DNA of 64,000 bases from Candidatus Nanoarchaeia archaeon (GTDB taxonomy: Archaea > Nanobdellota > Nanobdellia > Pacearchaeales > GW2011-AR1): assembly GCA_028711165.1 (NCBI GenBank), contig JAQTST010000001.1, forward strand, positions 14,708 to 78,707, given 5' to 3'. Position numbers and translations under genes: made by a program. The notes beneath the pieces were generated by a model. The model was not told the DNA's origin and did not search any database. It was given only the letters and a program-made list of their open reading frames with translations. The first letter of the stretch is position 1, and every line of letters begins with the position of its first letter. Below, one piece after another: positions 1,087 to 27,015 of the stretch.

Positions 1087-1916
1087 TGAAAAAAGTAATT
1101 TTAATAACGGGGGGAACGGGATTTATTGGAAGGAATCTTATTCCCTTACTTGAAAAAAAATATGAAATAAAAATTCTTTCCCGAGAGGTAGATGGAGAAA
1201 AAATTGTAAAGGGGGATTTGGTAAATTATGACTCGGTTAAAGACGTTACAAAAAATGTTGATGAAGTAATACACCTAGCATATTCAAAAAATTATCCTGA
1301 AAATATTCTAATGACTGAAAATTTAATTAAGGCTTGTAAAGAAGAGGAGGTAAAAAAAATAATTTTACTAAGTTCAATGTCAGCCAAAAGAAGTTATCCT
1401 GACGATTATGGAAAAAATAAACTTGAAATTGAAAAGATAATTAAGAATTCAGGAATAAATTATACAATATTAAGGCCGAGCATAGTTTATGGGAAGGGAA
1501 GTAAAAGTTTTGATTTTATTATCGAGAAAATAAAAAAATTGCCTTTTATTCCGATAATTGGAAATGGGAAATATGCAATAAGTCCTGTTTATATCGACGA
1601 TGTTATCTGTATGATTGACAAATGTGTGAATAATAAGAAAACGGATAAAAAAGAATATGATTTGCCTGGGGGAGAAAGCATCTGGTTTAGAGATTTGATA
1701 AAAGAACTTAAAAAAGAAATAAACACTTCGAAGAAAGAGATTAATATTCCCATAGGAATTTGCAAAATTGTTGCGAGAATATCCCCAAAGGTTATAAGCA
1801 TGGAAAATATCAAGAATTTGACAGAAGACAGCAAAGCAGATATTGAAATTGCAAGGAAAGATTTAGGCTATAATCCTGTTAAATTTTCCGAAGGAATAAA
1901 AAATGGTCTCATATAA
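1086..1916 (+). CDS. NAD(P)-dependent sugar epimerase/reductase (extended SDR)
   Basis: N-terminal Rossmann motif 'ILITGGTGFIGRNL'. The ATG overlaps the upstream stop (TAATG). Confidence 0.75.
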   Translation: MKKVILITGGTGFIGRNLIPLLEKKYEIKILSREVDGEKIVKGDLVNYDSVKDVTKNVDEVIHLAYSKNYPENILMTENLIKACKEEEVKKIILLSSMSAKRSYPDDYGKNKLEIEKIIKNSGINYTILRPSIVYGKGSKSFDFIIEKIKKLPFIPIIGNGKYAISPVYIDDVICMIDKCVNNKKTDKKEYDLPGGESIWFRDLIKELKKEINTSKKEINIPIGICKIVARISPKVISMENIKNLTEDSKADIEIARKDLGYNPVKFSEGIKNGLI

Positions 1917-3018
1917 ACAGATAATGAAAAGTGCTATTGCACGAAAACCAGTGAGGTCTATAGTCAGTAGCATGTCTACCTTTAGGCACGGCCAAAAAGC
2001 AGGATTGCCATTTAAGTTAAAATTTGAAAGTTCTTCTGTGTGCAATTTAAAATGTGGTATGTGCCCGCTAAATTCAGGATTAAAAAGAAAACAGGGATTT
2101 TTGAAATTTGATAATTTTAAAAAAGTATTTGACCAGATAAAACCTGCGTATCTGAATTTAACTGGTATCGGCGAGCCTTTTCTCAATCCAGATATTTTCG
2201 ATATTATAAAATACGCCAAGAAAAATAAAGCAATGGTAAAATTTGATACAAATGCTATGCTATTAAATGAAGAAAATATAACAAAAATTTTAGAGACAGG
2301 AGTTGATGTTTTATCAATTTCTATCGACGGAACTACGAAAAAAAGTTATGAACAAATAAGAGTTGGAGGAAATTTTGACACAGTCAGACAAAATGTTAAA
2401 AGATTAGTCGAAGAAAGAAATAAAGTAAATTCTTCAACGGAAGTGCATATGTTTTTTGTGCTACAAGCAAAGAATATTCAGGAATTGCCAAATTTTGTAA
2501 AATTAGCTGATGAGCTTGGAGTAAATTATGTTGCAGGAAGTTTTGTTGTTAACCTCGGAGATAATAAAAATGAAAAGAATAAAATATTTGATTACAAAGA
2601 AAAGGTGGACGAATTGGTAAGAGAAACAGAAGAAGCAGTGAAAAATGCAAAAGCGAAAGTGAGTATTGAACCGCTTCTGGAATATATAAAATCTTCAGGG
2701 AGCAAAGAATTCTACAATGAAGACATGCCTTGTTTTATGCCGTGGTATTCTGTTTTTATAACTTGGGATGGCTGGGTAAATCCATGTGATTTTTCATGTG
2801 ATAATGAAATTGTTTTTGGAAATGTTTTTGAAAAACCATTTAAGGAAATCTGGAATAATGAGAAATTAAAAAATTTCAGAATACAACTGTTAAACAGCAG
2901 GAAAGAAATTCCATTATGCAAAAATTGCGGAGTAAATGAAAGTTATATTGAGGATGAATTTAAAAAAATAAGAAAAATTCCTTTTCTAAAACGCCTGCAG
3001 AATAATAAAAATAGCTAA
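1903..3018 (+). CDS. radical SAM protein with SPASM-like C-terminal Cys cluster
   Basis: CX3CX2C 'CNLKCGMCP', 'GIGEPFLNP', and a C-terminal 'PCFMPW...WVNPCDFSC...LCKNCG'. Confidence 0.85.
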   Translation: MVSYKQIMKSAIARKPVRSIVSSMSTFRHGQKAGLPFKLKFESSSVCNLKCGMCPLNSGLKRKQGFLKFDNFKKVFDQIKPAYLNLTGIGEPFLNPDIFDIIKYAKKNKAMVKFDTNAMLLNEENITKILETGVDVLSISIDGTTKKSYEQIRVGGNFDTVRQNVKRLVEERNKVNSSTEVHMFFVLQAKNIQELPNFVKLADELGVNYVAGSFVVNLGDNKNEKNKIFDYKEKVDELVRETEEAVKNAKAKVSIEPLLEYIKSSGSKEFYNEDMPCFMPWYSVFITWDGWVNPCDFSCDNEIVFGNVFEKPFKEIWNNEKLKNFRIQLLNSRKEIPLCKNCGVNESYIEDEFKKIRKIPFLKRLQNNKNS

Positions 3019-3019
3019 A

Positions 3020-3997
3020 ATGGAATATCCAAAAATAAGTGTAATAATGCCAATTTACAATGAAGAGAAAAAGATACAGAAATGTCTGGAAAGTATAAGG
3101 GAGCAGGATTATCCCCAAGATAAAATAGAGATTGTTTTTGTTGACGATGATTCAACAGACAAAAGCCTGGAGATAGCAAAAAAGTACAAAATAAAATATG
3201 TAAGAAATGGTGCTCACGATTATGACATTGGAAAATCTTTGGGAATTAAAGAGGCAACCGGTGAATATATCACATTTCTCGACGGGGATAATATTTTGCC
3301 GAATAAAGATTGGTTTAAAAAAATGATTCAGCCATTAATTGAAGACAAGAGCATTATCGGAAGTCAACTGATGTGGATTAAATATGATAAAAGTTATCCT
3401 TTTTTTGACAGATACTGCACATTATATGGAATTACAGATCCTCTAACAATTTATCTCGAAAAAAGAGGGCATTTAATGCTCTGGGAAAAAAAATGGAAAT
3501 TGGGATTAGTAAAAGATAATGAAAATTATTCTATTGCAGAATTCAATGAAAAGAATTTACCAACAATCGGTTCTGTCGGGTTCACAATAAAAAAAGAATA
3601 TTTGCTAAAAACAGATTATGATCCGGCTTTTTCTCATCTCGACTGTATGCAGGATTTAATTAAATTGGGATTAAAACGCTTTGCGATAGTAAAACAGGAT
3701 ATCATTCACCTGCACTCTTCCAGTTATTCTGATTTCATCGGGAAATTAAAAAGAAATTTAAATATTTTTATGAGAGATTATAAAAAAAGAAGGTACAAAT
3801 GGGAAGCCCCCCTATGGAAAAAAGCTTATGCAACTTTTGCTATGGGGACATTTATTATCCCATTTTATCATGCAACAAGGGGATATCTCAAGATTCATGA
3901 CGTCGCATGGTTTGCACACCCTTTTATTTGTTTTTCTGTTATCACCAAGTATCTTAAAATATTTTTATTCTGGAAATTAGGATGGACAAAAAATTAG
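3020..3997 (+). CDS. family 2 glycosyltransferase with C-terminal hydrophobic segments
   Basis: 'ISVIMPIYNEEKKI', 'VDDDSTD', and DxD 'FLDGDN'. Starts 1 nt after the radical SAM stop. Confidence 0.85.
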   Translation: MEYPKISVIMPIYNEEKKIQKCLESIREQDYPQDKIEIVFVDDDSTDKSLEIAKKYKIKYVRNGAHDYDIGKSLGIKEATGEYITFLDGDNILPNKDWFKKMIQPLIEDKSIIGSQLMWIKYDKSYPFFDRYCTLYGITDPLTIYLEKRGHLMLWEKKWKLGLVKDNENYSIAEFNEKNLPTIGSVGFTIKKEYLLKTDYDPAFSHLDCMQDLIKLGLKRFAIVKQDIIHLHSSSYSDFIGKLKRNLNIFMRDYKKRRYKWEAPLWKKAYATFAMGTFIIPFYHATRGYLKIHDVAWFAHPFICFSVITKYLKIFLFWKLGWTKN

Positions 3998-4875: not shown

Positions 4876-4912
4876 TTTGATTCGATTATATTTTTATTAA
4901 TAAAGATTGTGA

Positions 4913-6466
4913 TTAATTATAACTAGTTTCATAAACAATTAGTATAGGTGTTTGTTGTGCCTGATCTTCAAACCATACTTTTACAGGAGTAAATATATCG
5001 GGATATTGCGACGGATAAGTTAAAGTCCACTGAGGATTAGATGGTTCAAATGCTGAAACAACGACATATTTCGGCTTTTCATAATTTATTACGCCCCCCA
5101 ATTGTTCTGGAGTGTAATATGCTCCTTCAGTAGAATTATAAAAAGAAATTACTTTTCTCTCGGAATAATAAACTGTCTGCGGAACTGAAGCAGTCATGAT
5201 TATATCATTAGGATTAGAATTATCTTTCATCCACAGCGCCGCTTCTTTTACAGGCATATAACTACTTACCTTGTCTTTTATTATAATATCTGCATGATTT
5301 AATTGAAAATAAGCACCGAAAATAAGCGCGACAATTAAAATTATTATTGCTAGACTCTTGAAATTTTTTTTGACAAAGTCAAAAATCAAAACCAAGCCCT
5401 TCGCTGAAAGAATAAAGATACCTATTGACATTGCAATAAGCCATCTATTTTCTGCTACTCTTAAGAAGAAGATAAAAAAGAAAAGGATGACTGTTACTAA
5501 TAGGAATGAAAATAAATCATTATAATATTTTTTATCTTTTTTGAATAGAGTAAGATCGAGGCTTAAGAAAAGAGGGAAAAGAGTAGTCAGCCCGATTAAG
5601 AAAAATACGAAAAAACCGAGCTCAGGATAATCATACAAATGCTGAAACATATACCACCCAGGACTTAGATTAGATACATCACCATAACCCTGACTGAAAG
5701 CAAATACATTTCCGTGGTAAAACTGATTCCATATAAGGTAAGGAGATATTGTGAGGATGAAGACTAAAACTGCAATCCACAAATGTTTGTTTTTTAAAAA
5801 TTTAAATTGCTCTGTTGCAAATAAGAAAAAGAAAATAATTCCACCATATAGGATTCCTGTGAGTCGACAGAGAAAAGATAAAGCAACAAAAAAACCAATT
5901 AGCCAGATAAGATATTTTTTTTCTTTTTGGACATATCCTTTCCAGAAACAGAGAAGAGACAAAATCCCAAACAATAATCCAAGCGTGTCAGTCATTAATC
6001 TCATACTGTAGAAGAGATGAATCCATGAAACTGAGGTTATAAACGCAGTTATCAATGCTATTTTTTTATTATACATCTCTTTAACGAGAAGGTATGTGAA
6101 AAGAACAACAAGCAGAGCAGGAATTAATTCGAGAAGGAATTTAATGCTGTTTTCCTGAAATCCAATTTTGTATATTAAAAAAGCTAAAAATGAGAACAAT
6201 GGCGGTCTTGCGGGATGAATCTCATAAGGAATATCAAAAGCCCAATATTTTGCAGCAGATAAATATTCTGCTTCATCATGCCACAAAGTTTGACCATCTG
6301 TGATAAAAAAATAATATGACAGCAAAACAAAAGAAAATATCAAAAGTCCAAATAAAAGGATATTATACTTATTGGTTAAGATAGTTTTTATTTTTCCCTT
6401 TAATTCTTCTTTTTTTTTCTCTGTATCTGATGAAGACTCTTTTATCTCTCCTTTAATTTCTTCCAT
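4913..6466 (-). CDS. GT-C fold membrane glycosyltransferase (ArnT/PMT_2-like)
   Basis: More than 10 hydrophobic spans. Acidic first-loop motif 'WHDEAEYLSAAKYW'. Soluble C-terminal domain of about 130 aa. Confidence 0.6.
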   Translation of the reverse strand: MEEIKGEIKESSSDTEKKKEELKGKIKTILTNKYNILLFGLLIFSFVLLSYYFFITDGQTLWHDEAEYLSAAKYWAFDIPYEIHPARPPLFSFLAFLIYKIGFQENSIKFLLELIPALLVVLFTYLLVKEMYNKKIALITAFITSVSWIHLFYSMRLMTDTLGLLFGILSLLCFWKGYVQKEKKYLIWLIGFFVALSFLCRLTGILYGGIIFFFLFATEQFKFLKNKHLWIAVLVFILTISPYLIWNQFYHGNVFAFSQGYGDVSNLSPGWYMFQHLYDYPELGFFVFFLIGLTTLFPLFLSLDLTLFKKDKKYYNDLFSFLLVTVILFFFIFFLRVAENRWLIAMSIGIFILSAKGLVLIFDFVKKNFKSLAIIILIVALIFGAYFQLNHADIIIKDKVSSYMPVKEAALWMKDNSNPNDIIMTASVPQTVYYSERKVISFYNSTEGAYYTPEQLGGVINYEKPKYVVVSAFEPSNPQWTLTYPSQYPDIFTPVKVWFEDQAQQTPILIVYETSYN

Positions 6467-6505
6467 AAATTGAGAGAGAAAATGAAGTTTTTATTTATTG
6501 TTATT

Positions 6506-7534
6506 TTAAATCTCAACAAAAGTCTCCTTATTTGTTCCAGGGCAATCTTTGCATAATGCAAGACTTTTTTTATTAGTTAATATTTTTTTTCTGAAAGCAA
6601 GATACTTATTGTTATTCCAAATGTCTCTTATTTTTTCCTTAAACGCATTTCCAAAGACAAACAAGTTGTTCATATCAAAACAGCAAGGAACAACGCTTCC
6701 ATCCCAGTTTACAACAATTTCATCCCAGAGGAAATCGCATTCATTTTTAATTTCTTTTTTTGAAATAACTTTATTGCTATTAACAGAATATCTCGAGTAT
6801 TTTTTATTTTTTGGGAGATATTTTTTTATGTCTTCCTTGGAGAAATAATCCATTATTCCAACTGTTTTGAAAACGATTTCGTCCACGCCCAGAGATTTGG
6901 AAAGAGATTTAATTTTTTGTATTTCATGTTCATTTGATTTCATAATAATAAATTGCAATTTGATGTAAGGATTTGCGCATTTTAATCTCTTTTTCTCATT
7001 AACCAGAAATTGAATTGATTCTATTACTTTTTTGAAATTTCCGCCTTTCCTGTATTGCTGATAAGTTTCTTCAGAAGCGCCATCAAGGGAAACAATAAGT
7101 TCATCAAGTCGGGATTTAATTATCAGGGAAGAAGTATCTTTATCTAAAAAATGACTGTTTGTGCTGAGATTGACAAAAATATTTTTTTCCTTCGCATAAG
7201 AAATCATCTGAAAAATTTCTTTATTCAACAAAGGTTCTCCCCAATTCCATAATCTAAGATGATAAATATAGGGGGAGAGTTCATCAATGACTTTTTTAAA
7301 ATTGGAAAATGTAAGAAAACCTTTTGCTCTTTTTATGAACCCTGCTCCGGTCGGGCATAAAGGACATTTTAAGTTACAGGTATTTGTTGGCTCAATCATA
7401 AGTGTAGGAGGAAATCCAGAAATTTTTATCTTTTTTAATCGTTTAGAAATTTTAATCTTCAGAAGATTGACTAATCTCCGAGGATGAATTAAGATGTATT
7501 TAATAAAATATTTTATCTTTCTTTTTAATTTCAT
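6506..7534 (-). CDS. radical SAM protein with SPASM-like domain
   Basis: 'CNLKCPLCPTG', 'WGEPLLNK', and C-terminal 'VVPCCFD...LCKDCPG'. Resembles 1903..3018. Confidence 0.85.
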   Translation of the reverse strand: MKLKRKIKYFIKYILIHPRRLVNLLKIKISKRLKKIKISGFPPTLMIEPTNTCNLKCPLCPTGAGFIKRAKGFLTFSNFKKVIDELSPYIYHLRLWNWGEPLLNKEIFQMISYAKEKNIFVNLSTNSHFLDKDTSSLIIKSRLDELIVSLDGASEETYQQYRKGGNFKKVIESIQFLVNEKKRLKCANPYIKLQFIIMKSNEHEIQKIKSLSKSLGVDEIVFKTVGIMDYFSKEDIKKYLPKNKKYSRYSVNSNKVISKKEIKNECDFLWDEIVVNWDGSVVPCCFDMNNLFVFGNAFKEKIRDIWNNNKYLAFRKKILTNKKSLALCKDCPGTNKETFVEI

Positions 7535-8439
7535 TTTTTATAATCCAGAGTTTTAGTTGATTCAGAACGGGACCATACTGCAACATAGGGAATTTTTTTA
7601 ATCCTTATTTCATAAAAAGCTTTTAACCAAACATATAATCTTGCGGGATATAACAATAAAGTCCAAAGAAGTTCTTTTGAATTTTTTGGAAAAGACAAAA
7701 CAAATGAGAACCCGTAAATGAATTCGTTGAGCAGAGTTTTTTGCTTTACTTTTTTAGATAGATAAATATTCATAGCTTCATGAGATTTGGCTGAACGAAC
7801 TTTCTGTTTTACCCAGTCTCTAAAATTTCGTGGGTACATTACATAAACTTTTGCATCTCCGACGTAAATATTTTTATACCCTTTTTTTACAATCAGGTAA
7901 GGGATGATAGAATCTTCGGCAACATCTTTAGGAATTTTATTAATAATATATTTTCTTATCGCAAGAAGGTTTGCACATTGCTCTACAAATTTCCCACTGC
8001 GAAATCTTTTTTCTCTTAATCTATGGGCGGCATTTGTCAATAGATGAGCCCAGAATCCGAATAAATCATTTCTGCTATTTTGCGGAAGCGGCCTCCCACC
8101 AACACAGCCAACCAAAGGATCATCAAATTTTGCAACAATTAAACTGATTGCATCTTCTTCCACAAATTTATTTCCATCAGTCCAGATTAATATTTTCCCT
8201 TTAGCCAGATTTAAAATTTTATTCATTAATTCATTTTTGTCTGGGTTATCTTGTTTAACATATTTTATTATTTTGGGGTATTTTTTTTTATAATCCATAA
8301 TTACTTTTCTTGTCGGCTCATCAGGGCAGGCGGCAATTATCTCAAATTTTTCAGAAAAATTTTTTTGATTTAATAAACGATTAATTGCTTCATTTGTTGA
8401 ATGAGGATCTTCGTAAGCAGTCACAATTAATGAAATCAT
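7531..8439 (-). CDS. family 2 glycosyltransferase (paralog of 14262..15140)
   Basis: 'ISLIVTAYEDP...' GT-A N-terminus, long collinear similarity to 14262..15140, and a 4-nt overlap with the downstream radical SAM gene. Confidence 0.7.
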   Translation of the reverse strand: MISLIVTAYEDPHSTNEAINRLLNQKNFSEKFEIIAACPDEPTRKVIMDYKKKYPKIIKYVKQDNPDKNELMNKILNLAKGKILIWTDGNKFVEEDAISLIVAKFDDPLVGCVGGRPLPQNSRNDLFGFWAHLLTNAAHRLREKRFRSGKFVEQCANLLAIRKYIINKIPKDVAEDSIIPYLIVKKGYKNIYVGDAKVYVMYPRNFRDWVKQKVRSAKSHEAMNIYLSKKVKQKTLLNEFIYGFSFVLSFPKNSKELLWTLLLYPARLYVWLKAFYEIRIKKIPYVAVWSRSESTKTLDYKK

Positions 8440-8536
8440 AATTTTCAGACGGACAATCCTTTTTAAAAGATTATGAATTAAAAATATATCTTATTAGACA
8501 GATATGTTTAAAATAATAAAAGGAAATTATTAAATT
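8440..8536. promoter_or_regulatory. divergent promoter region with two TATA-like boxes
   Basis: 'ttttaaaaga' (8461..8470) lies 22-31 nt upstream of the minus-strand ATG (8439). 'gtttaaaataa' (8506..8516) lies 21-31 nt upstream of the plus-strand ATG (8537). Confidence 0.4.
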
Positions 8537-9280
8537 ATGCGAGCAATTTTACTTTCCGGGGGGAGAGGAGAAAGATTAAAGCCCCTCACGGATAAAATTC
8601 AAAAAGTGATGGTGCCAATAAATGGAAAACCTCTTTTGCAATATTGGGTAGAACTCTTGAAAAAATATAATATAAAAGAGATTGGAATGAACTTAAATTA
8701 TCTTGGGGAACAGATTATGGATCATTTTGGTGATGGAAAAAATTTTGGGGTGAATGTATACTATTTAATAGAAGAGACTCTTCTTGGAACTGCAACGCCA
8801 ATTAAAAGATTTGATAAACTTTATCCGGGATTTTGTTCAGAACCTTTTTTTGTAATTTATGCGGATAATTTGAGCAATATGAATTTGGAAAAAGTAATCT
8901 CAAGACATAAAAAAAATTCTCCATTTGTTACATTAACCCTGCATAATCATTCTGAACCTTGGACAAGAGGAATTGTGAACGTAAATAGTAAAGGAAAGGT
9001 TTTGGGATTTATAGAGAAACCAAAAAAAGAAGATATAATCTCGGGGAAAATAAGGGGGGAATCTGCATCATGTGTTTATTTATTTGAACCGACAACGCTA
9101 AAATATTTCAGAGAGGAAAAAGAAGATTTGGGAACAGATTTATTCCCAAGACTTTTAGAAGATAAATGCCCCCTCTATGCATTTAATCCGAAAGCATATG
9201 TTCAAGATATAGGAACATTAGAAAGATATGAGCAAGCAAAAAAAGATGTTGCAAAATTTCCAAAGAAATTTAATGTTTAA
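8537..9280 (+). CDS. sugar-1-phosphate nucleotidylyltransferase (HddC/ManC-like)
   Basis: 'AILLSGGRGERLKPLT' signature of NTP_transferase enzymes. Confidence 0.8.
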   Translation: MRAILLSGGRGERLKPLTDKIQKVMVPINGKPLLQYWVELLKKYNIKEIGMNLNYLGEQIMDHFGDGKNFGVNVYYLIEETLLGTATPIKRFDKLYPGFCSEPFFVIYADNLSNMNLEKVISRHKKNSPFVTLTLHNHSEPWTRGIVNVNSKGKVLGFIEKPKKEDIISGKIRGESASCVYLFEPTTLKYFREEKEDLGTDLFPRLLEDKCPLYAFNPKAYVQDIGTLERYEQAKKDVAKFPKKFNV

Positions 9281-9374
9281 ATTATTTCCTAAGTAAAATA
9301 TAGATTATCTCTTCATAATCTTTAAAAGATAATATAGGTAAAAAGGTGTATGAAAAAAGTGAGGCAAAAGGAAG

Positions 9375-11081
9375 ATGATAATTTCTAAGACCCCTTACAG
9401 AGTTGACTTAATTGGAGATGGAACTGATTTAGGAAGTTTTTGCAGAAGAGAAAGGGGATGTATAATTAATGCGGCGATTAAAAAGTATATTTACATAATA
9501 ATCAATAAATCAAAAGATGATAAAATCACAATAATCTCTGAAGAAAATATAGAAATTGCCGACAATGTTGAAGAAGTAAAAAATTCCAGAATAAGGGAAG
9601 CAATGAAACTTACTGGAGTTACAAAGGGAATTACACTCTATTCGATTGCAGAAGCTCCGGTGGGAACAGGGTTGGGTGGTTCTAGTTCATTCACGGTAGG
9701 AATTCTAAATGCTCTTCATGCTTACAAGGGAGAACATCCTGATAAAAAAGAATTAGCTGAAGAAGCCTGCAAAATAGAAATCGATATTCTAAAAGAGCCT
9801 ATAGGAAAACAAGATCAATATGCTGCTGCTTTTGGGGGGTTTAATAGAATGGAATTTTTTGGGAAGGATGTTAAAGTATCTTCTTTGGGTTTAGAAAATG
9901 AGACATTATCTAAAATTGAAGAAACTATGATGATGTTTTATCTTGGAGGAAGCAGAAAGACTTCTAATATTCTCTCAGAACAAAATGAAAGAATAAAAGA
10001 TAACTTGGAAGTTTTTAATTCTCTTTTGAATATGAGGAATCTCGCAGACCAGATGTTTATAGAATGTGACTCAAACTGCGAAGTTAGATTTGGAGAATAT
10101 CTAAAAAAGAATTGGGCTATCAAGAAAGGATTAGTCGGAGGAATAAATAATCCTATAATAGAAAACTATTGTGCTCTCGCATTATCTCTTGGGGTCTATG
10201 GAGCAAAACTTTCCGGAGCAGGAGGTTCTGGATTTTTAATTGTGTCTGCTTCTAAAGAAAAGCAGAATATAATAAAAGAGAATTTTAAAAATTTAGAGTT
10301 TCATGAATTTAAAATTGATTATACTGGAAGCCAGATTATTTATTCAGATGAAAAAGAATTTGAAAATAAAGTGGAGAGAAATTTTCCAAAACTAAAGGGA
10401 GTAGCTTTTGATTTGGAGGGAACTGTTGTGGATTTAGAAAGGTTTCATCATAACGCTCACTTAGAAGTCTGCAGGGCAGTAGGATTGAATATCTCCTTAA
10501 CGGAAGCCATTGAAAAAATTCCCCATTTTGTAGGCGGACCAGACAATAAAATAATGGAGGATATACGCAATTTGGGATATACAAGCAAAAGTGTAGAAGA
10601 GATGATTGAAATGGATAGCAAACTTTACGAAAAAGAATTAATGAGCACTCCGATGATTCTACCGCGCCCCGGATTTTTAGAATTTTTAGATAAATTAAAG
10701 AAAACAGGAATAAAATATTCTATCGGTTCTCTCACAGATACAAAGTGGGCTGTATATATTCTTGAAAAATCCGGGCTTATGCATCCCTTTGATACAAATA
10801 GTATAGTTTTAAGAGAGCATGTTTTTAATTTGAAACCTTCTCCTGATGTTTATCTTAAAACCGCGCAAAGAATGGGAATTTCTCCTGAAGAACAGATAGT
10901 TTTTGAAGATTCTCCAAACGGAGCTAAAGCGGCAGTAAATGCTGGCTCCAGAGTCATTGCTATGCCCATATACTACAAGAACCAAGAAGTAACAAGGAGA
11001 TTAAAAGAAGTTGGGATATTGGAAATCTTTCCTGATTGGGACTGCGATAAATTAATGCAGTTAATTGGGGGATTGAAATGA
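9375..11081 (+). CDS. GHMP sugar kinase (HddA-like heptose kinase) fused to a HAD-superfamily phosphatase-like domain
   Basis: N-terminal half: 'DLIGDGTDL', 'APVGTGLGGSSS' (GHMP motif II) and 'KLSGAGGSGF' (motif III). C-terminal half: 'AFDLEGTVVD' (HAD motif I with Glu in place of the second Asp) and 'FEDSPNGAKAA' (motif IV). Confidence 0.75.
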   Translation: MIISKTPYRVDLIGDGTDLGSFCRRERGCIINAAIKKYIYIIINKSKDDKITIISEENIEIADNVEEVKNSRIREAMKLTGVTKGITLYSIAEAPVGTGLGGSSSFTVGILNALHAYKGEHPDKKELAEEACKIEIDILKEPIGKQDQYAAAFGGFNRMEFFGKDVKVSSLGLENETLSKIEETMMMFYLGGSRKTSNILSEQNERIKDNLEVFNSLLNMRNLADQMFIECDSNCEVRFGEYLKKNWAIKKGLVGGINNPIIENYCALALSLGVYGAKLSGAGGSGFLIVSASKEKQNIIKENFKNLEFHEFKIDYTGSQIIYSDEKEFENKVERNFPKLKGVAFDLEGTVVDLERFHHNAHLEVCRAVGLNISLTEAIEKIPHFVGGPDNKIMEDIRNLGYTSKSVEEMIEMDSKLYEKELMSTPMILPRPGFLEFLDKLKKTGIKYSIGSLTDTKWAVYILEKSGLMHPFDTNSIVLREHVFNLKPSPDVYLKTAQRMGISPEEQIVFEDSPNGAKAAVNAGSRVIAMPIYYKNQEVTRRLKEVGILEIFPDWDCDKLMQLIGGLK

Positions 11082-12037
11082 TAATTTCTCGAACTCCATT
11101 AAATTTAAATTTCTGTGGAGAGGAGACAAATATAAAAGAATATTGGGAAAAACATGACGGGGCAATTATCTGTGGAACAATTAACAAATATATATATTTA
11201 ATCGCAAAAGAAAGAATTGATAATGAAATCTGGCTGAAATATTCCAAAAACGAAATTGTAAAAAGATTGGACGAGATTAAAAATGAACTACTAAAAGAAG
11301 TGTTAAAAGAAACAGGGTTCATCAAGGGGATAGAACTTGTCTCCCTCTCAAGCATCCCAAAGGGGTATGAACTAGGAAGCTCTAGTGCATTTACTATTGG
11401 TTCTTTAAATTCAGTTTATGCTTTATTGGGAAAATATAAATCTCCCTTAGAGTTGGCTAAAGAAGCCATAGAAATAGAAAGAAAAGCGAGGGGATTAAAT
11501 AGCAAAAGAAATGAGCAGTATTCCCTTTCATATGGAGGATTAAATTTTATAGAACTAAAAAAAGATGGAGAAATAAAAATTAGCCCGATTATTATGCCTC
11601 CCTCAATAAAAAAGAGCCTGACGGATAATCTTCTTTTATTTGATATGGGGATAAAAGAGAATCCTCAAGATGAAATTTTAAAAGAAAAACCAATAGATGA
11701 AGAATCTCTTCATAAGGCAAAAGAATTTGCTTATGCACTTAAAGATTCACTACAGTCTTTGGATATTAGAAGATTTGGAGAAATTCTACACCAAAATTGG
11801 GTTTATAAAAAAACAAAAGAGGAAATACATCCTGCAATAGAATGGAACTATAATCTTGCAAAATCCGCCGGTGCAGTCGGAGGAAAGGTTTGGAATTGTA
11901 AAAATGGAAGATTCTTGCTTCTGTATGTTGAACCAGAAAATCAAGACAGGGTAAGAGCTGCTTTAGGGAATCTAAATGAGATTCATTTTAATTTAGAAAG
12001 TTCTGGCAGTAAGATAATCTATCTGGAGGATATATGA
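11078..12037 (+). CDS. GHMP kinase-family paralog with degenerate nucleotide-binding motifs
   Basis: Collinear with the N-terminal half of 9375..11081 ('MIISRTPLNLNF' vs 'MIISKTPYRVDL'). Motif II is 'IPKGYELGSSSA' and motif III is 'GAVGGKVWNCKNGRF'. ATGA overlap with the upstream gene. Confidence 0.6.
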   Translation: MIISRTPLNLNFCGEETNIKEYWEKHDGAIICGTINKYIYLIAKERIDNEIWLKYSKNEIVKRLDEIKNELLKEVLKETGFIKGIELVSLSSIPKGYELGSSSAFTIGSLNSVYALLGKYKSPLELAKEAIEIERKARGLNSKRNEQYSLSYGGLNFIELKKDGEIKISPIIMPPSIKKSLTDNLLLFDMGIKENPQDEILKEKPIDEESLHKAKEFAYALKDSLQSLDIRRFGEILHQNWVYKKTKEEIHPAIEWNYNLAKSAGAVGGKVWNCKNGRFLLLYVEPENQDRVRAALGNLNEIHFNLESSGSKIIYLEDI

Positions 12038-12648
12038 ATTTTGCAGAAGAATATTTTTTTGAATTGAAAAAAAATCTGGAAAAAGTAGATAAAAAAAAAA
12101 TAGAAGAGATCGCGAATGTTCTTATAAATGCGTGGAAAAACGACAAGCAGGTTTTTATTGTTGGTAATGGTGGAAGTGCAGCCACTTCTTCCCATATGGC
12201 TTGTGATTTGGGAAAAGGAACTTTGAAAAAGATTTATGATCCCAGAGAAAAAAGATTCAGAGTTATTTCCCTTACTGATAATACCCCCTTGTTAACTGCT
12301 TTGTCAAACGATGTTGGTTATGAAAATGTTTTTGCCCAACAGTTGTATAACCAAATTCAAGTTGGAGATGTATTAATTGCTATTACTGGAAGCGGAAACA
12401 GTGAAAATGTGATTAGGGCAATTAAAGTCGCCCAAGAAAAAAAAGCCATTATAATTGCTTTTCTTGGAGCAAATGGGGGGAAGGTAAGAGAGATTGTGGA
12501 TTATTATTTACTCTATGAAGAACCCCATTATGGAAGAATTGAAGATGCACATAGCATTTTTTCACATTTAATCTGCTGTTGGATAAGAGAAAAAATTAAT
12601 GTTTTAAAATCAGAGGGGAAGTTTTTTAAGGAGGGTGTAGAAAAATAA
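12034..12648 (+). CDS. gmhA: sedoheptulose-7-phosphate isomerase (SIS domain, GmhA-like)
   Basis: 'FIVGNGGSAATSSHMACDL' SIS/GmhA signature. About 200 aa. Sits next to heptose kinase-like genes. Confidence 0.8.
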   Translation: MNFAEEYFFELKKNLEKVDKKKIEEIANVLINAWKNDKQVFIVGNGGSAATSSHMACDLGKGTLKKIYDPREKRFRVISLTDNTPLLTALSNDVGYENVFAQQLYNQIQVGDVLIAITGSGNSENVIRAIKVAQEKKAIIIAFLGANGGKVREIVDYYLLYEEPHYGRIEDAHSIFSHLICCWIREKINVLKSEGKFFKEGVEK

Positions 12649-13745
12649 TGAAAGTCTTAATCACAGGAGGAGCAGGATTCATTGGAAGTCATACTGCAGA
12701 TTTGTTATCTCAAAAAGGATACTCTGTAAAAATATTAGATAATTTAAGCCCGCCAGTCCACGACGGAGAATGGCCGGATTATGTTAAAAGAGAAGGATAT
12801 GAATTGGTAAGAGGAGATGTTACAAACAAAAAAGATTTAACAAAAGTGTTAGACAGCGTCGATTATGTGTTACATCTTGCAGCATACCAAGATCAGATGC
12901 CTAACTTCAGCAAATTTTTTACAACAAATACTGTAAGTACGGCTCTCATCTTTGAGACAATATTAGAGAATAAATTTCCTGTTAAAAAAATAGTTTATGC
13001 AAGTTCCCAATTTGTTTATGGTGATGGGATTTACAAATCAGAGGATGGAAAAGAATTTTTTCCCGAGCTAAGAACTGAAGAACAATTCAAAAATAAAATG
13101 TGGGACATAATTGATTCTGGAGGAAGAAGAGCAAAATTTATATCATTCAAAGAAGAGCAAAAAATTAATCCAATCAATTCATATGGGTTATCTAAAATGG
13201 CGTCGGAAGTGATGGGATTAAGACTTGGAAAAACTTATGGCATACCTTTTTCAATTTTGAGATATTCAATTGTGCAGGGAGCAAGGCAATCTCCGAGAAA
13301 TATTTATTCCGGAGCATTGAGAATTTTTGTAACTCAAGCTCTTGCAGGAAAAACTATCACAGTAATGGAAGATGGGAATCAGTTAAGAGATTTTGTCAAT
13401 GTTGAAAATGTCGCGGAGGCAAATGTGCTAATGATTGAAGATTCAAAAACAGATTTTGAGATATACAACGTCGGTGGAGGAAAAAGCTACAAGGTAAAAG
13501 ATTTTGCAGAGATAGTAAAAAGAATAACAAAATCCGATTCAGATATTTTAATCGACGGAAGATACAGAAGGACAGACACCAGAAATGCTGTGTCAGATAT
13601 TTCAAAATTAGAAAATCTCGGCTGGAATCCATCAAATAGTCCTGAAAAATCTGTTAATGATTATGTTAACTGGATAAAATCCTCAAAATTTGATATAGAG
13701 GAAATTGTAAAAAATATTGAAAGGGGGCATAAAGAATTAGTTTAA
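12648..13745 (+). CDS. NAD-dependent sugar epimerase/dehydratase (extended SDR)
   Basis: '[13 protein letters not shown]' and catalytic 'YGLSK'. Confidence 0.8.
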   Translation: MKVLITGGAGFIGSHTADLLSQKGYSVKILDNLSPPVHDGEWPDYVKREGYELVRGDVTNKKDLTKVLDSVDYVLHLAAYQDQMPNFSKFFTTNTVSTALIFETILENKFPVKKIVYASSQFVYGDGIYKSEDGKEFFPELRTEEQFKNKMWDIIDSGGRRAKFISFKEEQKINPINSYGLSKMASEVMGLRLGKTYGIPFSILRYSIVQGARQSPRNIYSGALRIFVTQALAGKTITVMEDGNQLRDFVNVENVAEANVLMIEDSKTDFEIYNVGGGKSYKVKDFAEIVKRITKSDSDILIDGRYRRTDTRNAVSDISKLENLGWNPSNSPEKSVNDYVNWIKSSKFDIEEIVKNIERGHKELV

Positions 13746-14261
13746 ATGTTTCCTGTAGAAAATTCCGATTTATACACTTCTGGAAAAATCATTAAGCCGG
13801 AAGAAGCAGCGATTTTTGTCTCAAAATTAAAAAGTTTTAATAAAAAAGTTGGCTTGTGCCTCGGATGTTTTGATTTGCTTCATCCCGGACATATAAAACA
13901 TTTAGAATCTGCAAAAAAATTATGCGATTATCTTGTTGTTGCGATAACTGCAGACAAATTTATAACTCCAAGAAAAGGTGAAGGCAGGCCCATATTTAAT
14001 GAAAAAATCAGGGCTTATATGATAGCAATGATGGAAATTGTTGATTGCGTGGTTATTCAAAATTATGAAAGAGGAACAGAAATGATAGAGATAATCAAAC
14101 CAACACATTATTTTAAAGGACCAGATATTAAAAATTTAGATACTCCTGCAATTAATGAAGAACGTGAGATGGTTAAAAAAGTTGGCGGGGAGATGATATA
14201 CACTGATGATCCAAAATGGGCAACTACAGAGATATTAGATTTCCTGAAAAATTTAAAATAA
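13746..14261 (+). CDS. cytidylyltransferase-fold nucleotidyltransferase (RfaE/HldE domain II-like)
   Basis: 'GCFDLLHPGHIKHL' (HxGH), followed by 'RPIFNEKIRAYMIAMMEIVDCVV', resembling the heptose-1-phosphate adenylyltransferase domain. Confidence 0.7.
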   Translation: MFPVENSDLYTSGKIIKPEEAAIFVSKLKSFNKKVGLCLGCFDLLHPGHIKHLESAKKLCDYLVVAITADKFITPRKGEGRPIFNEKIRAYMIAMMEIVDCVVIQNYERGTEMIEIIKPTHYFKGPDIKNLDTPAINEEREMVKKVGGEMIYTDDPKWATTEILDFLKNLK

Positions 14262-15140
14262 TTATGGATTTACTTTCGGCCTCCATACAGGACAATACGG
14301 ATTTTTCTTAATCCTCAAAGCATAATAGGCTCGAATTTGTATGTAAGCCAGGAATAAAATAAAGGATAAAGATTTTAAAAAATTATCAAAAAGATTGTCA
14401 AAGGAAAAAAATAAAACTTCATTATAAAAATTTTTATACCGAATATTACTGCCCTTTGCGTATCTTAATAAAGTCATGTGCGCTTTTGCGCTACGAACTC
14501 TTTGATGAAAATGTGCATTTAAATCTGAAGGGTATTTAACATAAACTTTTGCATTTTCGACATAAATATTCTTGTATCCTTTATTGCTTATTAAAAAAGA
14601 AATTATGGTGCCTTCAGCGACGTCGAGGGGGATTTCATTGATTATACCTTTTCGAATAGCGAGGATTGTTGCGGTGTGTTCAATGAATAAATTTTTCTTA
14701 AATCTTCTTTTTTTCATTTTATGAAGTCCGTTTGTCAATACATGCGCCCAGTAATCGTATAAATTATTTTTGCCATTTAGAGGGATTATTCTGCCACCGG
14801 CGATTCCAACTTTCTCATCATTAAATTGTTCAACAAGAAGTCTGACAACATCTTTTTCAAAAAACTTGTTTCCATCAGTCCAGATTAAAATTCTCCCTTT
14901 GGCAATTTTCATGATTTCATTCATAAGCTGATTTTTTGAGTGAGTATAATCTTGAGAAATATATTTTATAATTTGGGGGTATTTTTTTTTATAATCCATA
15001 ATTATTTTTTTTGTGGGATTGTCCGGACAGGCAGCAATTAATTCAAATTCCTCGGAAAAATTTTCCTGGTTTAAAATTCGGGAAATACATTCACCAATAG
15101 TGTTTGAATGTTCAAAAGCTGTAACAATTATGGAAATCAT
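14262..15140 (-). CDS. family 2 glycosyltransferase (paralog of 7531..8439)
   Basis: 'MISIIVTAFEHSN...FELIAACPDNPTKKIIMDYKKKYPQIIKY' aligns collinearly with 7531..8439. Confidence 0.7.
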   Translation of the reverse strand: MISIIVTAFEHSNTIGECISRILNQENFSEEFELIAACPDNPTKKIIMDYKKKYPQIIKYISQDYTHSKNQLMNEIMKIAKGRILIWTDGNKFFEKDVVRLLVEQFNDEKVGIAGGRIIPLNGKNNLYDYWAHVLTNGLHKMKKRRFKKNLFIEHTATILAIRKGIINEIPLDVAEGTIISFLISNKGYKNIYVENAKVYVKYPSDLNAHFHQRVRSAKAHMTLLRYAKGSNIRYKNFYNEVLFFSFDNLFDNFLKSLSFILFLAYIQIRAYYALRIKKNPYCPVWRPKVNP

Positions 15141-16672
15141 ATTCTATATCTTACTTTATCATACCACACTTTAAAATTTACAGGAAGAGAGCGATAAAAA
15201 GGCTTGGCAATTTTTTCCCGAATTAAATCATAGAACCCAACGATTTCCAAGACAATCAAAGTTCTAAGATTATTTCTTAAATTTCTTTTTACTCTTTCAG
15301 GTTTTAATAAATAATTAATTAGAGAATTAGATAAAAATCCAAAACGGGTTTTAGTAACACTTCCTCTCATTAAATTTAATATAAGAACGAGATACATATT
15401 TTTTCGTTTAAGTAAAATGTGAGCTTTTCTATCCCAATAATTCAAATGATAGGCTGCATCTTTTTCTGTTTTTACTAATCCTTCTTTTCTTGCTCGCTGG
15501 TCAAGTTTAGAGCCAGGAAAAAGAACAAGATTATTTACTGAAAGATAATAGGGTTTTGGAATTTTTTGAAGGAGCCTTATCAGGCTAATTATATTTTCTG
15601 GAGTTTCATAAGGATTGCAGGTAATAACATCGTACATAACTGCTAATTTATCCTTGTATTTGTTCAAAATTCTTGACGCCCTTAAAACATCTTCATCTTT
15701 CTGATTTCTATGATAGATTTCAGAATTTGTTTTTTCACTTCCCTGAATACCAATTATGATATCAGTGCATCCAGCATCGATTAAAAGAGAAATTTTTTCG
15801 TCATCAATTGTCTTTGGGTCTCCGAGACATTTGAATCGCATTTTTATCTGTTTTTTATATAATTCGCAGAATTTTTTTATGTCTTCTTTATTTCTCCAGG
15901 AGAATGTATCGTCGCGGATATCAAAATAATTTAAAGTTGGAAATTTTTTCTTTAATTCAAGAATCCCCCTGATGATATATTCTGGAGAATGCCATCTTAA
16001 AATTTTTTTTCGCTTTTCTTTGTAAAGTTCGTTTAATAGACTATTACTGCAATAATCACATCCATAAGGACAGCCCCGCCCAGTCAGGAAAAATATTGCT
16101 CCATCTAAATCTGATTCAGAAAATTTTCTTATTTTTTTATTGTCCAAAAGATAATGGGTATTAATCTCATAGTCGGGCATCGGGATTTCGTCAAGATTAT
16201 CAATCAGATTTCGGACAGGATTTTTTATTATTTTATTTTCTTTTTTAATCCATAAATTTTTTATTTTTTCAATAGATTTTTTATTTTCAATGGCATTTGC
16301 AAGTTCCACAATTGCATCTTCAGCCTCGCCGACACAGACTAAATCACAGACTTTAATACAATCTTCAGGAGATATTGTTGCGTGAACTCCACCATAGACT
16401 ATTGGTTGATTTAATCTTTTTTTCAAAAAAGATATTATTCTTGATGCTCTCTTGGAAGTTGAAGCAAATGCATTTATTCCAATCAACTGGCTATCTCTGC
16501 AAAATTTTAATAATTGATTCAGTTCTCGAAGGTTATAATTTCTAAAATAATTTTCACTTAGAGACATAAATACAATCCTCACGTTATGCCCTGCCTTTTT
16601 TAACATTGAAGAAATTGTTCTTATTCCCTGATCAGAGGGATAGGTTGAAGTTGAAATGAGAGTTATCTTCAT
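15137..16672 (-). CDS. class B (B12-binding domain) radical SAM enzyme
   Basis: N-terminal flavodoxin-like B12-type domain ('ITLISTS...VYGGVHAT'), then 'LTGRGCPYGCDYCS' and 'GIQGSEKT'. Confidence 0.85.
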   Translation of the reverse strand: MKITLISTSTYPSDQGIRTISSMLKKAGHNVRIVFMSLSENYFRNYNLRELNQLLKFCRDSQLIGINAFASTSKRASRIISFLKKRLNQPIVYGGVHATISPEDCIKVCDLVCVGEAEDAIVELANAIENKKSIEKIKNLWIKKENKIIKNPVRNLIDNLDEIPMPDYEINTHYLLDNKKIRKFSESDLDGAIFFLTGRGCPYGCDYCSNSLLNELYKEKRKKILRWHSPEYIIRGILELKKKFPTLNYFDIRDDTFSWRNKEDIKKFCELYKKQIKMRFKCLGDPKTIDDEKISLLIDAGCTDIIIGIQGSEKTNSEIYHRNQKDEDVLRASRILNKYKDKLAVMYDVITCNPYETPENIISLIRLLQKIPKPYYLSVNNLVLFPGSKLDQRARKEGLVKTEKDAAYHLNYWDRKAHILLKRKNMYLVLILNLMRGSVTKTRFGFLSNSLINYLLKPERVKRNLRNNLRTLIVLEIVGFYDLIREKIAKPFYRSLPVNFKVWYDKVRYRI

Positions 16673-20830: not shown

Positions 20831-20916
20831 AAATTTATTTAAATGAAAATTCGAAAATAGTTTTATGCCTACCGTTTAGGGTAAGATTAGGAAATAAATT
20901 TTAACAGATTTTATAA

Positions 20917-23092: not shown

Positions 23093-23120
23093 GAGAATAT
23101 ATCATTCGGAACATAAGAAT

Positions 23121-23129: not shown

Positions 23130-23150
23130 ATTATTTAGATACAGGATTTT

Positions 23151-24622: not shown

Positions 24623-24623
24623 A

Positions 24624-27014: not shown

Positions 27015-27015
27015 T

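Follow-up and report, generated by a model that had tools for sequence, protein, structure and literature searches.

Radical SAM genes and glycosyltransferases in a probable cell-surface glycan island of a DPANN archaeon

SpeY of the spectinomycin pathway and BtrN of the butirosin pathway consist of a radical SAM (rSAM) core and a C-terminal auxiliary Fe-S (twitch/SPASM) domain. HygY and NeoN are further twitch rSAM carbohydrate dehydrogenases or epimerases. The gentamicin enzymes GenK and GenD1, class B cobalamin-dependent rSAM sugar C-methyltransferases, carry a B12-binding domain N-terminal to the rSAM core. In the lipid A Ara4N pathway, the lipid-linked sugar is modified by ArnD after the ArnC step and before that of ArnT. 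In the hopanoid side-chain pathway, the family-2 glycosyltransferase (GT2) HpnI attaches a sugar, which the B12-like rSAM HpnJ then rearranges. The mycofactocin cluster contains both an rSAM/SPASM enzyme (MftC) and a GT2 (MftF).

A 623-kb contig of a Candidatus Nanoarchaeia MAG gave an exact protein match to the window, the whole 64,000-nucleotide stretch that we analysed. Relatives were Pacearchaeota, Woesearchaeota and Nanoarchaeia MAGs. Pfam searches of the 61 window ORFs revealed 16 rSAMs (26%) and six GT2s, accompanied by two GT4s, one GT-C, a Wzx-type flippase, many SDRs, nucleotidyltransferases, aminotransferases and methyltransferases, and one NeuB-, one TPP- and one transketolase-type gene (Table 1). 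The CxxxCxxC motif was retained in all 15 full-length rSAMs, and none of these reached a curated NCBIfam cut-off. The window probably represents an island for cell-surface glycan biosynthesis in a DPANN archaeon, built from several separately inherited cassettes. Each would combine nucleotide-sugar enzymes, at least one rSAM tailoring enzyme and the transferase or transferases that use the product.

Table 1. Positions of the cassette genes and of the other rSAM genes in the window
Feature	Coordinates	Strand	Evidence
B12-class rSAM, C-terminal end (cut by window start), first visible gene of cassette A	24..524	+	Pfam Radical_SAM C-terminal match
SDR, NmrA/NAD_binding_10-type	1086..1916	+	Pfam
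rSAM/SPASM of pair A	1903..3018	+	Pfam Radical_SAM 66.8 bits, SPASM 66.5 bits
GT2 of pair A, GT-A fold	3020..3997	+	Pfam Glycos_transf_2 108 bits
GT-C (PMT_2, ArnT/PMT-like, multi-pass membrane)	4913..6466	-	Pfam PMT_2 68 bits
rSAM/SPASM of pair B	6506..7534	-	Pfam
GT2 of pair B	7531..8439	-	Pfam Glycos_transf_2 and Glyco_tranf_2_3
Six-gene cassette resembling nucleotide-heptose synthesis, pairs B and C on either side	8537..14261	+	Pfam
GT2 of pair C, paralog of GT2 7531	14262..15140	-	52.6% identity
B12-binding (class B) rSAM of pair C	15137..16672	-	Pfam B12-binding 50 bits, Radical_SAM 53 bits
Ten further rSAM genes, which set the 26% rSAM density	18666..51351		Pfam; CxxxCxxC in all
rSAM	18666..19649	-	Pfam, CxxxCxxC
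rSAM	19646..20830	-	Pfam, CxxxCxxC
rSAM, B12	25725..27014	-	Pfam, CxxxCxxC
rSAM, B12	27016..28632	-	Pfam, CxxxCxxC
rSAM	31465..32514	+	Pfam, CxxxCxxC
rSAM	32516..33556	+	Pfam, CxxxCxxC
rSAM	35045..36142	-	Pfam, CxxxCxxC
rSAM	40240..41181	-	Pfam, CxxxCxxC
rSAM	43199..44248	+	Pfam, CxxxCxxC
rSAM, B12	49501..51351	+	Pfam, CxxxCxxC
TylC3-type sugar C-methyltransferase (Methyltransf_14), starts conserved triad D	51838..53037	+	Pfam
GT2 of pair D	53012..54088	+	Pfam Glycos_transf_2 127 bits
rSAM of pair D	54085..55275	+	Pfam; AF2 model pLDDT 86
Second rSAM of cassette D, weak SPASM match	55268..56362	+	Pfam

A preliminary description of this DNA had singled out four abutting GT2/rSAM pairs as one recurring, translationally coupled unit. 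The ORFs and junctions all exist as described. The rSAM precedes the GT2 with a 1-nt gap in pair A and a 4-nt overlap in pair C; in pairs B and D the GT2 comes first and overlaps the rSAM by 4 nt, and the second rSAM of cassette D follows with an 8-nt overlap. Pfam confirmed the classes (Radical_SAM plus SPASM at 1903 and 6506, B12-binding plus Radical_SAM at 15137, Glycos_transf_2 in the four GT2s), and the GT2s at 7531 and 14262 are indeed paralogs, with 52.6% identity over 291 aa. However, neither the recurrence nor the spacing turned out to be special. Since a quarter of the window genes are rSAMs, four GT2-rSAM adjacencies are close to the number that chance would produce. Label permutation over the 61 ORFs gave 3.1 expected against 4 observed (p=0.39), and 2.25 against 4 when only the same strand was counted (p=0.17). 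Adjacencies between an rSAM and any glycosyltransferase were borderline enriched (8 observed, 4.7 expected, p=0.06). Gaps of 1 nt or less occurred at 31 of the 43 same-strand junctions (median -4), so the "translational coupling" is the background state of a compact genome. The tight junctions most plausibly reflect operon compaction and co-expression, and do not demonstrate a GT2-rSAM complex. With their number at chance expectation and non-homologous GT2s and rSAMs joined in them, the four pairs are not copies of one unit, but members of four different cassettes.

Pair D was the most widely conserved. Its GT2 and rSAM were adjacent in six of six independent contexts in archaea and bacteria, among them Patescibacteria, Omnitrophota and Desulfatitalea; the two genes either overlapped by 4 nt or were at most 12 nt apart. 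Such complete conservation would also fit a functional or physical coupling tighter than operon membership. The longest GT2 ORF starts from TTG at 53012, while the ATG at 53030 was the start in the preliminary description; orthologs with 48-60% identity lie immediately 5' of the rSAM in loci L098, L100 (as two ORFs) and L101. A counterpart of the C-methyltransferase is found 5' of the GT2 in L100, L102 and L103-105, and orthologs of the second rSAM (65% identity) in L098 and L100. The cassette as a whole is conserved in L098-L105, and Patescibacteria and Omnitrophota also carry its neighbours, with 47-68% identity. Triad D is part of a larger cassette that CPR and other bacteria have as well. 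The rSAM family itself shows 56-77% identity across DPANN, Patescibacteria, Omnitrophota and Desulfatitalea. In the AF2 model of rSAM 54085, a Rossmann-like domain with a GxGxxG motif (residues 1 to ~135) precedes the rSAM core, and the C-terminal domain is twitch-like. The best PDB fold was SpeY, a twitch rSAM dehydrogenase (7wzv, E 3e-12, TM 0.52/0.68), followed by BtrN. The N-terminal domain shows a weak resemblance to Methyltransf_14 (E 0.008), the domain that binds the NDP-sugar in TylC3/TcaB9-type enzymes. This resemblance points to action before transfer, not on a lipid-linked sugar.

In operon B, the family profile of GT2 7531 matched DPMS (5mlz, 4e-21) and then ArnC and GtrB (~1e-20, range to 5e-20), a resemblance that lends some support to a polyprenyl-phosphate sugar synthase. 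The polyprenyl-P acceptor is only putative, because GtrB and ArnC have clear TM helices at the C-terminus that were missing here (no strong hydrophobic helix by Kyte-Doolittle analysis) and the AF2 model had a pLDDT of 46. The C-terminal Cys-rich domain of rSAM 6506, which reached no NCBIfam cut-off, matched the auxiliary-cluster domain of BtrN (4m7t, E 3e-12). The GT-C, with at least nine hydrophobic segments, is predicted to catalyze the last glycosyl-transfer step. All 11 relatives with at least 65% identity retained pair B and its 4-nt overlap, among them loci such as L004 and L013, which differ in downstream context. At 56% identity or less the pair dissolved, and the rSAM lay near PMT_2 instead of a GT2. 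At 65% identity or above, a PMT_2 GT-C followed the rSAM in most relatives; at 49-56%, it lay within one to three genes. The GT-C is the more persistent partner of this rSAM. Below 60% identity, the upstream neighbours of the family were glycosyltransferases in 24 of 54 cases (10 GT2, 9 GT1/GT4 and 5 Alg14). Below about 50%, members also occurred in the housekeeping contexts of Lon, GlnA and YicC, so a link to glycans does not hold for the whole family. We also noted an Arn-like gene set adjoining an rSAM-PMT_2 pair in one related locus (L008).

Between pairs B and C lie genes for an NTP-transferase, a GHMP kinase-HAD fusion, a GHMP kinase, an SIS isomerase, an SDR and a cytidylyltransferase-like protein. 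Their best NCBIfam matches were HddA (twice), GmhA and RfaE domain II, with HddC and heptose epimerase lower in the lists, all below cut-off. In L002-L006, this set keeps its synteny with both pairs. Orthologs of the pair C rSAM, whose motif is CPYGCDYC, share 67-89% identity in L002-L004 and L006. The paralogous GT2 was kept next to it in two of these four relatives (L002 and L006, with spacers of 88 and 51 nt) and was absent in L003 and L004.

Cassette A is conserved in L091-L097. Its truncated first gene shares 65-67% identity with the C-termini of 469-472-aa B12-binding rSAMs in L091 and L092. Orthologs of the SDR (42-61% identity) lie immediately 5' of the rSAM, overlapping it, in L091, L092/93 and L094-97. 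The rSAM, with the motif CNLKCGMC, is 34% identical to rSAM 6506 and matched no NCBIfam model at cut-off; the NCBI product has 364 aa, so the true start may be ~21 nt downstream. The GT2 has no hydrophobic (TM-like) segment. Its ortholog in L091 is 73% identical, and a GT2 of 29-30% identity occupies the same position in L092 and lies one gene further on in L094. The rSAM-GT2 pair persisted down to ~51% identity, with an extra ORF between the two genes in L094-97, and the GT2 diverged much faster than the rSAM (29% versus 51% identity). It is the upstream SDR that is the constant partner of this rSAM.

The window rSAMs are best read as twitch/SPASM enzymes like SpeY and BtrN, together with B12-class enzymes. 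They are likely to be sugar-tailoring enzymes whose genes share operons with those of the transferases acting on the product, and to be cytoplasmic because SAM and a reductant are needed. The twitch/SPASM enzymes would abstract hydrogen from a sugar carbinol carbon, leading to oxidation, epimerization or deoxygenation as in SpeY and BtrN, and the B12-class enzymes may carry out C-methylation or rearrangement. Radical tailoring of a sugar handled by an adjoining transferase, as originally proposed, remains the most reasonable reading in this sugar-biosynthesis context, although not as the work of a single functional unit. The idea that it takes place on a lipid-linked intermediate gained some support in operon B, where the GT2 resembles polyprenyl-P glycosyltransferases and a GT-C follows the rSAM. 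There the substrate could be either the NDP-sugar or the polyprenyl-P-sugar made by the GT2; the sugar would then be flipped and transferred by the GT-C outside the cell. In cassette D, the rSAM most likely acts first, on the NDP-sugar, and the GT2 then transfers the sugar.

Alternatively, GT2 and rSAM might form an obligate two-enzyme unit, by substrate channelling or as a complex, that was recruited four times and in which radical modification of the sugar follows or precedes its transfer, possibly on the lipid-linked intermediate. We regard this as rather unlikely. The cross-domain adjacency of pair D and that of pair B in close relatives argue for it, but pair B is lost with distance, pair C keeps its GT2 in only half of its relatives, and pair A is split by an ORF in L094-97, while its GT2 drifts. 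The glycosyltransferases upstream of distant 6506 homologues and the borderline enrichment for any glycosyltransferase are also in its favour, as is the fact that the substrate of SpeY-type enzymes is already glycosylated. However, the transferase class varies (GT2, GT4, Alg14), GT2-rSAM adjacency is at chance level with generic overlaps, the pairs lack homology as units, and no GT2-rSAM fusion was found among the 360 homologues listed. Only some pairs, D above all, stay together in other organisms.

Action on lipids or glycolipid head groups, as by HpnI/HpnJ or archaeal tetraether rSAMs, for example in decorating host-scavenged lipids, appears improbable. DPANN archaea generally depend on host lipids, and rSAM 6506 weakly matched GDGT-MAS (7tol). 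The top NCBIfam matches of the B12-class rSAMs were HpnJ and "lipid biosynthesis B12-binding/radical SAM", but the scores were far under the curated cut-offs: HpnJ, first for rSAM 27016 and second for 25725, gave 163 bits against a cut-off of 578. The Wzx-type flippase, the GT-C and the large nucleotide-sugar gene set are typical of glycan assembly. SPASM enzymes are often peptide maturases. The maturases of sactipeptides and ranthipeptides were weak NCBIfam matches, as was SunS for GT2 3020, and together these points could suggest RiPP maturation with GT2s glycosylating the peptide to a glycocin-like product. This is highly improbable: these matches are far under cut-off, gaps around the pairs are at most 40 nt and leave no space for precursor genes, the neighbours are nucleotide-sugar enzymes, and the best structural relatives, SpeY and BtrN, act on carbohydrates.

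Among the known systems, mycofactocin also places a SPASM rSAM and a GT2 in one cluster, and both models matched weakly here. Membership was rejected, with MftC at 88 bits (cut-off 265) and MftF at 55 (cut-off 280), and neither a precursor peptide nor MftB was found in the window. The GT2-rSAM combination can be likened to hopanoid HpnI/HpnK/HpnJ, but the organism is archaeal and has no hopanoid genes in the window. Like ArnC/ArnD/ArnT and GtrA/GtrB/GtrC, operon B combines a polyprenyl-P-type GT2 with a GT-C, here of the PMT_2 type, and its rSAM gene lies between the two. It differs in having an rSAM instead of a deformylase for tailoring, a GT2 with no obvious TM helices, and no dedicated small flippase within the operon. 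The B12-class rSAMs share the domain order and sugar-pathway setting of GenK and GenD1, but matched no curated family, and may catalyze methylation or another reaction. SpeY and BtrN are similar to the window rSAMs in architecture and, again, in sugar pathways with adjoining glycosyltransferases. Nonetheless, the identity is only 16-20%, rSAM 54085 has its extra Rossmann-like N-terminal domain, and the setting is a cell-surface glycan island of DPANN/CPR instead of an aminoglycoside antibiotic cluster.

An ORF check confirmed the four junctions at which a family-2 glycosyltransferase (GT2) had been described as abutting a radical SAM (rSAM) gene (pairs A to D in the table, where proteins go by ORF start coordinate). 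The enzyme classes were also right by Pfam, with Radical_SAM and SPASM in 1903 and 6506, B12-binding and Radical_SAM in 15137, and Glycos_transf_2 in the four GT2s. All-against-all BLAST showed that GT2 7531 and GT2 14262 are paralogs (52.6% identity) and that they do adjoin different rSAM classes, SPASM and B12, respectively. The preliminary description further treated the recurrence of the pairing and its essentially absent spacers as special, and this was not borne out. Sixteen of the 61 window ORFs (26%) were rSAM genes by Pfam annotation, comprising five of the B12 class, ten SPASM/twitch-like or plain members plus a fragment at the edge of the window, and six of the 61 were GT2 genes. 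Label permutation within the window gave 3.1 expected GT2-rSAM adjacencies against four observed (p=0.39). The same-strand adjacencies numbered four against 2.25 expected (p=0.17), and any glycosyltransferase adjoined an rSAM eight times against 4.7 (p=0.06). Of the 43 same-strand junctions, 31 had gaps no larger than 1 nt (median -4). Thus, the recurrence carries no signal by itself, and the same applies to the coupling. The recurrent coupled pairs are largely a by-product of locus composition, and the tight junctions reflect operon compaction. The unusual trait of the window is its rSAM density, not the pairing.

A single long glycan island fills the window and holds all of its rSAM genes. 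Three window proteins had exact matches in a Candidatus Nanoarchaeia MAG (623-kb contig). Besides these, Pfam identified nucleotidyltransferases, 4,6-dehydratases/SDRs, DegT aminotransferases, C- and other methyltransferases, a Wzx-type flippase, GT4s and one GT-C. The island also holds a NeuB-cupin fusion, a split transketolase and an acetolactate-synthase-like TPP enzyme, which together suggest branched-chain and/or higher-carbon (ulosonic) sugars. Of the window GT2s, a fifth one, 47697, was most clearly a polyprenyl-phosphate glycosyltransferase, and it has no rSAM neighbor. Two ORFs, 30160 and 60007, matched no Pfam family; the latter may be a Wzy/ligase-type membrane protein. Scanning the window for tRNAs and Rfam families gave no matches.

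Coordinates of the genes, cassettes and domains discussed (window positions unless a related locus from another genome, L-number, is named)
Feature	Coordinates	Strand	Remarks
Pair A, SPASM rSAM 1903	1903-3018	+	1-nt gap to GT2 3020
Pair A, GT2 3020	3020-3997	+	
GT-C (PMT_2)	4913-6466		Downstream of rSAM 6506
Pair B, SPASM rSAM 6506	6506-7534	-	4-nt overlap with GT2 7531
Pair B, GT2 7531	7531-8439	-	
Candidate nucleotide-heptose genes	8537-14261		
GHMP kinase-HAD phosphatase fusion	9375-11081		Two separate ORFs in L002 (7370-9035)
Pair C, GT2 14262	14262-15140	-	4-nt overlap with rSAM 15137
Pair C, B12 rSAM 15137	15137-16672	-	
Sugar-1-phosphate nucleotidyltransferase-GT4 fusion	16786-18669		627 aa; 56% identity in L006
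ORF 30160	30160-31368		402 aa, soluble; faint GT-B-like matches only
Tandem duplicate SPASM rSAMs	31465-32514; 32516-33556		73% identity, 1 nt apart
Split transketolase	41936-43149		
Cassette around pair D	44306-58025		
NeuB-cupin fusion	46052-47623		
GT2 47697	47697-48671		PgfS 234 bits, ArnC 147 bits; two C-terminal TM helices
Triad D	51838-55275		C-methyltransferase 51838, GT2 53012, rSAM 54085
Pair D, GT2 53012	53012/53030-54088	+	4-nt overlap with rSAM 54085
Pair D, rSAM 54085	54085-55275	+	8-nt overlap with rSAM 55268
N-domain of 54085	54085-54500		Residues 1 to about 135
rSAM 55268	55268-56362	+	
Acetolactate-synthase-like TPP enzyme	56388-58025		
ORF 60007	60007-61470		487 aa, at least 8 hydrophobic segments
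L008 locus, rSAM-PMT_2 and Arn-like gene set	1-13032		Woesearchaeota MAG
Split triad D GT2, L100	3947-5004		Omnitrophota; 176 + 171 aa, both matching 53012
N-domain fusions, related clusters	L101 1-1143; L101 2683-3954; L102 38-1261		

The CxxxCxxC [4Fe-4S]/SAM motif was present in all 15 full-length rSAM genes, and their PF04055 scores (34-83 bits; cut-off 29.5) place them in the superfamily. SPASM (PF13186) scored 66.5 bits on 1903 and 65.1 bits on 6506 (cut-off 21.5), which assigns both to the SPASM/twitch group. On 15137 a B12-binding domain (PF02310, 50.4 bits; cut-off 32.1) precedes the rSAM core; the same architecture occurs in 25725, 27016 and 49501, and by domain content these four are predicted class B (B12-binding) rSAMs. 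The GT2s of the four pairs belong to their family by PF00535 (3020, 108 bits; 7531, 42.7; 14262, 52.9; 53012, 127; cut-off 23.3). No window rSAM or GT2 reached a curated NCBIfam cut-off, and none of the 15 full-length rSAMs falls into a curated family.

Conservation beyond this genome differed between the pairs and was highest in pair D. Orthologs of GT2 53012 and rSAM 54085 adjoined in 6/6 independent contexts from archaea and bacteria, among them Patescibacteria, Omnitrophota and Desulfatitalea, and a C-methyltransferase lay upstream in most of the six. The surrounding window cassette holds an NTP-transferase, a 4,6-dehydratase, the NeuB-cupin, a NUDIX protein, the C-methyltransferase, the GT2, rSAMs and the TPP enzyme. 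The NTP-transferase, dehydratase, NUDIX, NeuB-cupin, TPP enzyme, rSAM 55268 and B12 rSAM 49501 recurred beside pair D (loci L098, L100, L101 and L103), their proteins being 47-68% identical in Patescibacteria and Omnitrophota, with a partial set in Desulfatitalea. The cassette is therefore common to both domains, and its recurrence suggests cross-domain transfer. In the Omnitrophota locus L100 the triad GT2 was split in two ORFs; the split may be genuine or else result from a frameshift or an assembly error.

Pfam SPASM did not match 54085. Its AF2 model, a confident one (pLDDT 86), superposed best on the twitch rSAM dehydrogenase SpeY (7wzv; E 3e-12, TM 0.52/0.68, 19% identity), followed in the PDB by BtrN and then MoaA. 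The model matches these twitch enzymes in fold, and the corresponding chemistry would be oxidation of a carbinol carbon. The protein also carries an extra Rossmann-like N-domain with a GxGxxG motif and a precomputed Pfam label, C2185-like_N. The domain has a weak similarity (E 0.008) to Methyltransf_14, which binds NDP-sugar in TylC3-type enzymes. In related clusters, N-domains of this type were fused to an SDR, a Methyltransf_21 and a UbiE-type methyltransferase, and the domain may be a shared substrate-binding module.

The adjacency of pair B was retained among close relatives only. At 65% identity or more, the GT2 preceded the rSAM with the identical 4-nt overlap in all 11 loci with a visible upstream side, and a PMT_2 GT-C usually came next. 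At 55-56% identity the GT2 was gone; the rSAM was followed by PMT_2 within 1-3 genes, with Alg14 divergently upstream. At 49% identity (L008) the rSAM stood immediately before PMT_2, beside an Arn-like set of DegT, GT2, Polysacc_deac_1, UDP-glucose dehydrogenase and SDR genes; downstream in this locus, an ORF pair (130 aa + 263 aa) was present in two tandem copies. Among 6506 homologues below 60% identity, the upstream neighbor was a GT2 in 10/54, a GT1/GT4 in 9/54 and Alg14 in 5/54, the downstream neighbor was a GT2 in 7/63, and part of the contexts were plain housekeeping.

The C-terminal domain of 6506 matched the BtrN auxiliary-cluster domain (E 3e-12), and the GT-C belongs to the ArnT/PMT-like family of multi-pass membrane proteins by PMT_2 (68.2 bits; cut-off 26.1), with at least nine hydrophobic segments. 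A single-sequence PDB search with GT2 7531 gave no match, and a family profile of 7531/14262 was required. Its top match was DPMS (5mlz, 4e-21), and the others among the top seven were ArnC (9hwj, 9bhc, 8vxh) and GtrB (5eke, 5ekp, 9nye), ranging to 5e-20. The closest solved relatives of these GT2s are thus the polyprenyl-phosphate glycosyltransferases DPMS, ArnC and GtrB. For C-terminal TM helices, neither GT2 had any 19-residue window reaching Kyte-Doolittle 1.6, whereas the PgfS/ArnC-like GT2 47697 showed two. Part of the DPM1-type enzymes also lack such helices, so both GT2s are candidate members of this group. The AF2 model of 7531, with the two paralogs of the window as its sole input, reached pLDDT 46, too low for a verdict on this point.

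The loci related through the GT2 paralogs were all DPANN MAGs (Pacearchaeota, Woesearchaeota, Nanoarchaeia). In the comparison of 15137 homologues, which covers L002-L006, the B12 rSAM of pair C occurred in L002, L003, L004 and L006. The GT2 paralog followed it only in L002 (88-nt spacer) and L006 (51 nt) and was missing in L003 and L004. The genes between pairs B and C contain the domain set of nucleotide-activated glycero-manno-heptose synthesis. All NCBIfam scores were below cut-off: the best matches were HddA (134 and 106 bits vs 600), GmhA (115 vs 276) and RfaE-II (107 vs 181.5), with HddC (79 vs 300) and heptose epimerase (103 vs 275) ranked lower. By domain set, this region is a candidate nucleotide-heptose pathway. 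For pair A, the order B12-rSAM, SDR, SPASM-rSAM, GT2 was retained at 65% and 51% identity and broken at 46% by one uncharacterized 249-aa ORF. The SDR overlapping the start of rSAM 1903 was the constant partner across relatives, and the GT2 fell to 29-30% identity while the rSAM held 46-51%.

An origin of the pairs by duplication of one GT2-rSAM unit was rejected by the all-against-all BLAST. The GT2 paralogs have rSAM neighbors of different classes. The rSAMs 1903 and 6506, themselves paralogs (34% identity), adjoin GT2s, 3020 and 7531, that did not match each other; GT2 3020 and GT2 53012 had only their N-terminal 95 residues in common. A RiPP pathway was likewise rejected, given the sugar-metabolism context and the lack of room for precursor genes. 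The GT2 and rSAM of pairs D and B may form a physical complex, against which stands the finding of no GT2-rSAM fusion among the 360 homologues listed. We consider it unlikely that the triad is an obligate unit across DPANN, CPR, Omnitrophota and Desulfobacterota, with operon B (GT2 7531, rSAM 6506 and the GT-C) perhaps a second, in which the rSAM tailors the sugar together with the transferase, for example as a polyprenyl-phosphate-linked sugar. If true, cell-surface glycan assembly would include a mode of radical sugar editing after activation that has not been described before, and such units would help explain why rSAMs make up a quarter of the island genes. The decay of pair B with divergence is the pattern expected if glycan cassettes are inherited separately, not if GT2 and rSAM form an obligate pair.

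Under separate inheritance of cassettes, we infer that the rSAMs act as cytoplasmic tailoring enzymes for sugars from the neighboring nucleotide-sugar genes. Twitch/SPASM members would oxidize or epimerize carbinol carbons, and B12 members would perform C-methylation or rearrangement. In cassette D an NDP-sugar would be modified and then transferred, an order to which the N-domain of 54085 gives a hint. Operon B runs from a polyprenyl-phosphate-GT-like GT2 through the rSAM to the GT-C; this order resembles ArnC/ArnD/ArnT, so modification of a lipid-linked sugar is possible there. As rSAMs require SAM and reductant, any such modification would have to precede flipping.

To our knowledge, nearly all known cases of radical SAM sugar tailoring come from antibiotic pathways (BtrN, SpeY, GenK). 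In the island it would be used at large scale by the surface-glycan genes of ultra-small archaea that depend on hosts, with one cassette common to CPR and other bacteria. Surface glycans are likely central to how DPANN and CPR cells, which live attached to hosts, interact with them. A limited literature search found neither rSAM-rich glycan islands of DPANN/CPR nor these conserved cassettes, which is absence of evidence only. Where a locus is rich in two families, repeated adjacency should be judged against a composition-aware null. The leads worth following are the underlying island and triad D. The triad and the GT2-rSAM-GT-C operon offer defined, conserved entry points to new carbohydrate radical chemistry. 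On the mycofactocin equivalog models of NCBIfam, the island gave only 88 bits for mycofact_rSAM (cut-off 265) and 55 bits for mycofact_glyco (cut-off 280). The hopanoid models HpnJ (at most 163.5 bits vs 577.6) and HpnH (at most 56 vs 225) likewise stayed below cut-off. Judged by these profiles, the island falls outside mycofactocin, hopanoid and every other curated system tested. In their mode of working its rSAMs would resemble the aminoglycoside sugar-tailoring enzymes SpeY, BtrN and GenK, and operon B resembles three-component polyprenyl-phosphate glycosylation (Arn, Gtr).
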